From Escherichia coli (lineage in GTDB: Bacteria > Pseudomonadota > Gammaproteobacteria > Enterobacterales > Enterobacteriaceae), in the NCBI RefSeq assembly GCF_048403405.1, contig NZ_CP183129.1: a stretch of DNA of 64,000 nt, one strand, 5' to 3'. Of the stretch, positions 10,555 through 11,824 are shown piece by piece; the first letter of the stretch is position 1, and every line of letters starts with the position of its first letter. The notes beneath the pieces were generated by a model. The model had not been told where the DNA came from. It ran no database searches and saw nothing but the letters and a program-made list of their open reading frames with translations. A program made the translations under genes and the position numbers.

Positions 10555-11079
10555 ATGACACGATATTGGAATTTAATTGCCCTATTATTCTCTGTGATAT
10601 CTATGTCATCCATTGCTGATGATACAACGCATGCAGGTGTTGTACGCATCGAAGGAATTATAACAGCAAAGACTTGTATTGTTGCCGATGAGTCTAAAAA
10701 TTTCACAGTTAACATGCCTGATGTTCCCAGTTATACGGTGAGAAATTCAGGGAGTGTTACTGAAAAAATTGGCTTCTCTTTAAAGTTAACCCGTTGTGGC
10801 AGTGATGTCAGTAATGCCAATGTCACGTTTGATGGAATACCAGTTAGTGAAGACGCAGCCCTATATAAACTGGAAGAGGGCTCAGTCGATGGGTTAGCAC
10901 TGGCTATTTTTGATAACAACAGACAAAGTATTAGTAATGGTATAAAGAGTACAAGTTATGCCCTTACACCATTGGTAGATAATACATTGCATTTCTTTGC
11001 TGCTTATAAAGCTATAAAAAATGATGTACAACCAGGAGATGCGAATGCATCAGTTTCCTTTATCGTCACTTATGATTAA
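10555..11079 (+). CDS. fimbrial minor subunit
   Basis: 174 aa; signal peptide, Cys pair (KTCIV...TRCG), C-terminal ...SFIVTYD pilin-like strand. Confidence 0.75.
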   Translation: MTRYWNLIALLFSVISMSSIADDTTHAGVVRIEGIITAKTCIVADESKNFTVNMPDVPSYTVRNSGSVTEKIGFSLKLTRCGSDVSNANVTFDGIPVSEDAALYKLEEGSVDGLALAIFDNNRQSISNGIKSTSYALTPLVDNTLHFFAAYKAIKNDVQPGDANASVSFIVTYD

Positions 11080-11824
11080 CGTGCTGATATGCATTTTAAT
11101 ATGTTGCACAAATGCGCAGGCAGGAGTTGTTGTTGGCGGTACTCGTTTTGTTTACCCAGAAAAGCAGTCATCAATTTCGGTCGAGCTTAAAAATACTGCC
11201 AGTAAAGATATGCTGGTTAAAATTTCCGTGACACCTGATGATGGACGTCAGTTAAAAGGGACACTGGAATCCCAGCCTTTACTTCCAGATAAGGCGTTTA
11301 TTGCCACACCACCATTATTGGTACTTAAACAAGATAAAAATACCAAAATAAGAATCAATCGCGTGGGGGGGCAGTTACCTATAGATCGTGAGAGTTTATT
11401 TATACTGAATATTGCAGCGTTACCTGCTCAGGAACAAAACTCACAGCTTAAGAATGAAAATCAACTCCAGGTGGCTGTACGTAATAGGATGAAAATATTT
11501 TACCGCCCAGAGACGTTATCAGGTAATCCACTTGACGCTTATCAACAGTTACGCTGGTCGCGAAACAATGAAGCTGTCACCGTTTTTAACCCTACGCCCT
11601 GGTATGTGACACTCTATAATTTATCTATTGATGGTAAAAGCATAAATGGTGGCATGGTTGCACCATTTAGTCATCGCCAACAGGATTGGTGTCAGCGGCA
11701 AGGATATTGTGAGATTAACTGGCAAACACTAGATCTTTACAATAATGCCTTACCCGTATGGAGCGTAAAATTAAATGTTTTACAAAATAATGCTATTATG
11801 GGTGCAGTAGCGATACATGGATAA
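11021..11824 (+). CDS. second periplasmic fimbrial chaperone (PapD-like)
   Basis: 267 aa ORF with motifs GTRFVYPEK, ATPPLLVLK, LQVAVRNRMKIFYRP, NPTPWY. The real start is probably 11045 or 11072 (the ATG at 11072 overlaps the upstream stop, ATGATTAA). Confidence 0.85.
   Translation: MMYNQEMRMHQFPLSSLMINVLICILICCTNAQAGVVVGGTRFVYPEKQSSISVELKNTASKDMLVKISVTPDDGRQLKGTLESQPLLPDKAFIATPPLLVLKQDKNTKIRINRVGGQLPIDRESLFILNIAALPAQEQNSQLKNENQLQVAVRNRMKIFYRPETLSGNPLDAYQQLRWSRNNEAVTVFNPTPWYVTLYNLSIDGKSINGGMVAPFSHRQQDWCQRQGYCEINWQTLDLYNNALPVWSVKLNVLQNNAIMGAVAIHG

Follow-up and report, generated by a model that had tools for sequence, protein, structure and literature searches.

Positions 5774–12968 of a 64,000-nt stretch of Escherichia coli DNA (contig NZ_CP183129.1; hereafter the window, to which all coordinates refer) contain seven co-oriented genes on the + strand, which form a chaperone-usher operon with two complete PapD-like chaperones. 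The operon is flanked by glgP (2842–5289, +) and glpD (13475–14995, −), and its gene order and flanks are those of c4214–c4207 in E. coli CFT073, that is, of the auf operon aufABCDEFG (Buckles et al. 2004, as cited in PMC5956150). Because locus, order and flanks match CFT073 and the two chaperones AufF and AufB are 67% and 78% identical to their counterparts in that strain, the window operon is the E. coli auf operon, and the open reading frame (ORF) that an earlier note on this DNA had flagged as a second chaperone is aufF, the sixth of the seven genes. The gene has been named and described before: aufF (c4208) and aufB (c4213) are each listed as ‘Auf fimbrial chaperone’ (PMC5956150), and Auf is stated to have two chaperones, AufB and AufF (PMC12928451). 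Neither the gene, for which annotations exist in hundreds of genomes, nor the presence of two chaperones in Auf is new; the earlier note was right to read a second chaperone here but had not recognised the described operon and the named gene. What the present analysis usefully adds is a likelier start, a divergent allele and the finding that adjacency to the adhesin gene is not conserved. Taken as a whole, the evidence makes it highly probable that aufF encodes an intact second Auf chaperone, an old paralogue that most likely serves a subset of the subunits.

The region 5600–13200 is 100% identical in several complete E. coli chromosomes, one of which carries RefSeq annotation of all seven genes. 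The first gene, aufA (5774–6478, +; a RefSeq coding sequence in the identical genome), encodes the major fimbrial subunit of 234 aa, with a Pfam Fimbrial domain scoring 77.8 bits. It is followed by aufB (6599–7351, +), the gene for the first PapD-like chaperone (250 aa; PapD_N 140.9 bits, PapD_C 46.8 bits), whose best NCBIfam matches are FimC and BcfB. The annotated AufB leader (6599–6724) is unusually long: ~42 residues, none of them an internal Met, precede a cleavage-like site at AIA|AGG, and the true aufB start may be a downstream non-ATG codon. The outer-membrane usher AufC (7393–9984, +; 863 aa) has PapC_N, Usher and PapC_C domains and is 50% identical to ElfC of E. coli K-12. Two minor pilins come next, AufD (10014–10547, +; 177 aa from the RefSeq start, which also gives the coordinates; longest ORF 9975–10547), with a Fimbrial domain of 97.8 bits and a FimF-like best NCBIfam match, and AufE (10555–11079, +; 174 aa; TAA stop at 11077–11079), with a Fimbrial domain of 64.6 bits and NCBIfam matches to FimF, FimI and BcfF. 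The second chaperone gene, aufF (11045–11824, +; 259 aa, WP_001306326.1), is annotated by RefSeq as ‘fimbrial biogenesis chaperone’, and the last 35 nt of aufE overlap it when the RefSeq start is used. The seventh gene, aufG (11838–12968, +; longest ORF from 11817, RefSeq start 11838), encodes a large two-domain subunit of 376 aa with a Fimbrial domain in its C-terminal half only, which matches the pilin half of FimH and, over almost its full length, LpfD in NCBIfam. From this domain make-up AufG looks like a tip adhesin, and the second chaperone gene does lie, as the earlier note had it, directly before a putative adhesin gene. AufF thus shares its operon with an usher and four Fimbrial-domain genes; NCBIfam matches of the remaining Auf proteins include BcfB, BcfD, BcfE and BcfF.

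The aufF reading frame is uninterrupted over 11021–11824 (+), giving 267 aa when counted from the first ATG. A profile search for chaperone fold signatures found them in AufF, with PapD_N at 103.4 bits (E 1e-29) and PapD_C at 32.1 bits (E 1e-7), both above the Pfam gathering cutoffs of 23 and 22.8 bits, respectively. AufB likewise exceeds both cutoffs, so that the two complete chaperones proposed in the earlier note (6599–7351 and 11021–11824) both stand. The closest solved structures to AufF by sequence are FimC (6e-29), SfaE, CupB2 and YadV. An AlphaFold2 model built with 39 homologues (mean predicted local distance difference test score, pLDDT, 87.3; predicted template modelling score, pTM, 0.79) has two immunoglobulin-like domains in a boomerang arrangement; against the PDB, FimC chains were the best match (E ~1e-17, target TM-score 0.89), and the top matches, FimC, Caf1M, SafB and YadV, reached target TM-scores of up to 0.92.

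The residues on which chaperones of this kind depend can be placed by alignment, wider conservation being assessed in 39 homologues. Arg34 (codon 11144–11146, +; Arg8 of the mature protein) is invariant among them and aligns with the TR of FimC; since the mature protein would start with GVVVGGTR, this residue falls at the Arg8 position of PapD and FimC. It would be expected to be the cleft residue that anchors the C-terminal carboxylate of the subunit, and the matching Arg36 of CupB2 is required for peptide binding (PMC3031594). Lys150 (codon 11492–11494, +), the equivalent of Lys112 in PapD and FimC, lies at the end of the G1 donor strand LQVAVRNRMKIFYRP, is also invariant and aligns with FimC SRIKLYYRP, the strand LQVAVRNRMK being aligned to LQLAIISRIK of FimC. 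The F1–G1 loop is short, ~2 residues longer than that of FimC, and has no Cys, which places AufF in the F1–G1-short (FGS) type. With the TPPL motif also present in AufF and canonical motifs in both chaperones, the full PapD-like set that had been claimed for the two proteins was recovered. A candidate Sec signal peptide, residues 1–26 (11045–11122, +), aligns with the FimC leader; it is hydrophobic, ends in AQA, after which cleavage is predicted, and is helical in the model over residues 7–20, and in the window allele its n-region contains neither Lys nor Arg. The predicted mature N-terminus, GVVVGGTRF, aligns with GVALGATR, with which the FimC chains of the PDB begin.

AufF has the same two-domain fold as FimC and PapD, and with them it shares the Arg8/Lys112 cleft, a G1 donor strand and a short F1–G1 loop. 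However, FimC and PapD are each the sole chaperone of their own system and serve all of its subunits, whereas AufF is one of two. AufF is ~30% identical to FimC and differs from it in a ~12-residue insertion, in a C-terminal tail predicted to form an extra hairpin and in a Cys pair that is absent from FimC, while PapD has a similar pair, Cys207–Cys212. AufF is an intact two-domain PapD/FimC-type chaperone of the FGS kind and, by analogy with these chaperones, would bind subunits.

AufF is not a recent copy of its operon partner. In a neighbour-joining tree of nine first and nine second chaperones, for which FimC served as the root of every bootstrap replicate, each of the 100 replicates recovered the second chaperones as a monophyletic group, and since AufF groups in all of them with YcbF and the other second chaperones, the duplication is old. 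The best matches of the Auf chaperones run between operons and not inside one operon: AufF scores 147 bits against YcbF and 113 bits against ElfD, AufB 161 bits against ElfD and 93 bits against YcbF, and AufB and AufF are 33% identical to each other. An alignment of the same nine first and nine second chaperones revealed signatures confined to the latter, namely the mature N-terminus G-V-V-x-G-G-T-R-F, the motifs F-I-A-T-P-P-L and L-R-W, a variable C-terminal tail and an insertion of 8–20 residues after strand C1. In AufF this insertion covers approximately residues 63–82 (11231–11290, +), is ~12 residues longer than the corresponding stretch of FimC and AufB in the alignment, and was modelled with a pLDDT of 81–84. 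Also restricted to this group is Cys216-x5-Cys222 in the C-terminal domain (11690–11710, +), part of a W-C-x5-C-x3-W motif found in all nine second and none of the nine first chaperones. These two residues probably form a disulfide like that of PapD Cys207–Cys212, a pair listed as a DsbA substrate (PMC8405906).

The closest named paralogue lineage is YcbF of the K-12 elf (ycb) operon (39% identity, 147 bits), which shares with AufF the GVVVGGTRF start, the insertion, LRW, the W-C-x5-C pair and an overlap with the preceding small pilin; Auf and Ycb (Elf) fimbriae are closely related (Wurpel et al. 2013). Against NF008483, the YcbF equivalog family, AufF scores 173.6 bits, below the cutoff of 357, whereas K-12 YcbF reaches 551 bits, and its best NCBIfam match, NF011739 (PRK15192), gives 174.7 bits against a cutoff of 296. 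AufF is therefore a relative of both families and a member of neither. NF011739 is probably Salmonella BcfG (bcfABCDEFGH), judging from the accession run in which PRK15187–15191 are BcfA, B, D, E and F. The AufF/YcbF/likely-BcfG lineage was present in every Elf/Bcf/Auf-type operon examined and is kept as the second chaperone across Enterobacterales. Such an old, monophyletic and constrained lineage makes the question of why Elf/Bcf/Auf fimbriae need two chaperones a legitimate, if modest, experimental problem. In a Klebsiella aerogenes operon (L006 9903–12659), genes for a DsbA/ScsC-like thioredoxin and a Wzy_C protein follow the second chaperone gene, and at another locus (L009 9723–11429) a gene for a PglL_A/Wzy_C (O-oligosaccharyltransferase-like) protein abuts it. 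Such neighbours may have to do with the Cys pair that is invariant in the lineage (compare Salmonella BcfH) or with glycosylation of pilins.

The aufF gene is also maintained within E. coli. Its ratio of non-synonymous to synonymous divergence (dN/dS) against the CFT073 allele is 0.125, and the gene is under purifying selection. Of 5426 complete E. coli genomes, in which alleles and intactness were counted, 784 carry aufF and 783 of them retain 80% or more of its length; the gene is not, as the earlier note had considered, a degraded pseudogene in related genomes. The sole disrupted copy, in E. coli 23AR0151 (L037 5271–7116), carries an IS903B transposase insertion. The exact-sequence cluster of AufF has 833 members. 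In CFT073, overexpression of tosR raised aufF by a log2 fold-change of 6.6 along with aufA–E (PMC5956150); the gene is regulated in that strain together with its operon.

The order of genes around the second chaperone was surveyed by protein-cluster look-ups and one scan of 100,044 species genomes; the Morganella loci L029–L034 were left out as single-chaperone operons that matched the GGTRF pattern only. In K-12 the elf order is elfA, elfD (chaperone), elfC (usher), elfG (large subunit), ycbU, ycbV and ycbF (chaperone), and this arrangement, in which the usher is followed at once by the large adhesin-like gene and two small pilins precede a terminal second chaperone, was found in 27 related operons. 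These come from Escherichia (K-12 and sp. E1V33), Hafnia, Citrobacter, Klebsiella aerogenes, K. oxytoca and K. spallanzanii, Enterobacter, Salmonella arizonae and diarizonae (L020, L021), Franconibacter, Superficieibacter, Pluralibacter, Pseudocitrobacter, Buttiauxella and others, including further contigs. By contrast, the Auf order of pilin, pilin, second chaperone and large subunit was seen only in the window, in CFT073 and in a Logan sequencing-run contig (L007). The chaperone is thus terminal in elf, where the adhesin-like elfG follows the usher, whereas in auf it precedes the large gene. A conserved linkage between the second chaperone and the adhesin gene was not found, the two being adjacent in three Auf-type and apart in 27 Elf/Bcf-type operons. 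As the second chaperone comes last after the small pilins in those 27, its conserved neighbour is the second small pilin, and the aufF–aufG adjacency is a local rearrangement specific to Auf. In Enterobacter sp. RIT418, two complete Elf/Bcf-type two-chaperone operons stand in tandem ~2.4 kb apart (L017 3351–10708 and 13152–19925).

Because AufF belongs to a distinct and old lineage long retained beside the first chaperone, we propose that it most likely serves a subset of the subunits and is not a duplicate of AufB; this subset would most likely be the minor or tip subunits AufD and AufE, possibly together with AufG. AufF, whose translation would probably be coupled to that of the overlapping aufE, would be exported by the Sec system and cleaved after AQA, and would then capture newly translocated pilins by donor-strand complementation, anchoring each subunit's C-terminal carboxylate on Arg34 and Lys150. 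It would deliver these subunits to the usher AufC, as FimC or PapD would. More generally, chaperones of the AufF/YcbF/BcfG type might form a distinct, specialised class, recognisable by the insertion after strand C1, the invariant W-C-x5-C pair and the C-terminal tail, that handles minor or tip subunits only, or fibre initiation or termination, while the first chaperone feeds the major subunit, a proposal to which we give about even chances. A search of the literature available found no experiment addressing it in Auf, Elf or Bcf.

More than one chaperone per operon is an accepted variation, as the earlier note had stated: chaperone number varies between operons, and Fas-type γ2 operons carry three chaperone genes (PMC7382220). 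In Pseudomonas aeruginosa, CupB2 and CupB4 are paired chaperones in one operon, of which CupB2 binds a peptide of the major subunit and CupB4 has been proposed for the adhesin branch (CupB6) (PMC3031594). The CupB pair and FasB/FasC/FasE resemble Auf in having more than one PapD-like chaperone per operon but belong to other usher clades and are not AufF orthologues; CupB2/CupB4 is a documented precedent for paired chaperones that are not redundant, and by analogy a client-selective role of AufF is plausible. Client assignment among the 987P Fas chaperones FasB, FasC and FasE was reportedly the work of Edwards et al. in 1996.

Several observations weigh against a subset role of AufF. Co-variation was measured as distance correlation (mirror-tree), first in nine operons and then in 27 with a partial Mantel correlation controlling for usher distance, and every pair co-varied in both. 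In the latter, the second chaperone correlated with the first small pilin at 0.46, the large subunit at 0.43, the second small pilin at 0.39 and the major subunit at 0.20, the corresponding values for the first chaperone being 0.34, 0.45, 0.27 and 0.26; the co-variation thus leans slightly towards the small pilins and does not separate the two chaperones. All four Auf subunits share the penultimate-Tyr C-terminal motif, so that the C-termini give no hint of different chaperones. CupB4 did not bind the CupB6 adhesin's C-terminal peptide (PMC3031594), which leaves the CupB analogy itself unsettled, and a deletion or binding study of aufF or ycbF was not found in the literature searched.

A role restricted to the tip adhesin, the first option that the earlier note had drawn from the position of aufF directly upstream of aufG, seems rather unlikely. 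The two genes are indeed adjacent in the three Auf-type operons, the second chaperone correlates with the large subunit at 0.43 and CupB4 was originally proposed to serve CupB6. However, the orthologue is terminal in the 27 other operons, with the large gene three or more genes away, the first chaperone correlates equally with the large subunit (0.45), and the CupB6 C-terminal peptide was not bound by CupB4. Since the adjacency is confined to Auf-type operons, it cannot be used to infer the client of AufF, and a dedicated adhesin chaperone does not follow from position.

It is improbable that AufF redundantly backs up AufB, with an identical range of clients, and is kept by operon inertia alone. 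Every canonical motif and the same fold occur in both proteins, and the co-variation test revealed no clear specificity, as such a back-up would have it. Yet the two are only one-third identical (33%), and the second lineage is monophyletic over many genera with invariant lineage-specific residues and its insertion. A redundant copy would be expected to decay, and the retention of aufF, with the second chaperone found in every Elf/Bcf/Auf-type operon examined, purifying selection and one disrupted copy in 784, counts against redundancy. A decaying or non-functional remnant can be dismissed almost entirely: AufF evolves faster than any other protein of the operon (dN 0.257; the two alleles are 67% identical), its PapD_C domain scores a modest 32 bits and no fitness or adhesion phenotype was recorded for the Auf operon in CFT073 (PMC5956150), but the frame is intact, the cleft residues are invariant, the model is confident, the gene is transcribed with its operon and a pseudogene was rejected on the dN/dS of 0.125 and the 783 of 784 full-length copies, the lone exception being due to IS903B.

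In-frame ATGs of aufF lie at 11021, 11024, 11039 and 11045 ahead of the leader and at 11072 inside it. The ATG at 11045, the RefSeq start assigned by the Prokaryotic Genome Annotation Pipeline (PGAP) in the genome identical over 5600–13200, gives the 35-nt overlap with aufE, and 6 nt upstream of it the sequence reads AGGAG, a Shine–Dalgarno-like motif (11034–11038, +), where CFT073 has AGGGG. The earlier note had placed the start at 11072, in ATGATTAA (11072–11079), whose TAA is the aufE stop. The overlap with the upstream stop is real, and a start at ATG 11072, with an overlap of 8 nt, is possible; the RefSeq start, however, is 11045. The geometry of the 8-nt overlap matches that of ycbV/ycbF in K-12, and in the L007 and CFT073 alleles the equivalent of ATG 11072 would give a signal peptide of 18–19 residues. 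On balance we lean towards ATG 11045 as the start rather than 11021 or 11072. ATG conservation does not decide the matter: the ATGs at 11045 and 11072 are both invariant in the three Auf alleles, yet both lie within constrained aufE codons (Asn-Ala and Tyr-Asp-stop, respectively). The same mature AufF results from either, and both overlap aufE.

Because either start overlaps aufE, translational coupling of aufF to aufE, as read from the sequence, is plausible. The second-chaperone start also overlaps or abuts the stop of the preceding small pilin in K-12 (8 nt), L007 (35 nt), L008 (8 nt) and L009 (4 nt). A 5-bp hairpin at 11038–11051 is a terminator-like match near the aufF start. No selected RNA structure was seen at the aufE stop/aufF start in 71-nt folds of the three alleles (z −1.05, −0.76 and +0.94), and there was no evidence of an internal aufF promoter, with 26 promoter-like sites found against 26.4 expected from shuffles.

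The window operon is not a near-identical copy of CFT073 auf but a deeply divergent allele at the same site. The closest named protein to AufF is CFT073 AufF, at 67% protein identity and 350 bits (~67% nucleotide identity), ahead of YcbF, and the remaining products are 71% (AufE), 78% (AufB), 81% (AufC and AufD), 83% (AufG) and 84% (AufA) identical to those of CFT073. When 5774–12968 is compared with L002 7460–14625 of CFT073, the auf genes are 67–77% identical in nucleotides with saturated dS, whereas the flanking glgP is 97.5% identical. Two such alleles at one site suggest old allelic divergence or horizontal replacement. The window type of aufF was found in 227 of the 5426 genomes and the CFT073 type in 557. 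CFT073 AufF is the positional orthologue: its operon lies at the same glgP/glpD site with the seven genes in the same order, and RefSeq gives its gene an identical 35-nt overlap with aufE. The CFT073 locus differs in three extra hypothetical genes between aufG and glpD (L002 5198–7286) that are missing from the window, with a spacer of only ~500 bp there (12969–13474), in which PGAP places a frameshifted, incomplete fragment of a hypothetical protein at ~13107–13321. The loci also differ in aufG, which in CFT073 (C_RS19915, L002 7460–8590) is marked by RefSeq as a pseudogene that has a stop within it: VEN*AASAQ stands against VENQAESAQ in the intact window copy; aufG is intact in strain 23AR0151 as well. 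The reference Auf strain may therefore make a shortened form of its putative adhesin, which could be relevant to the reported lack of Auf adhesion and fitness phenotypes.

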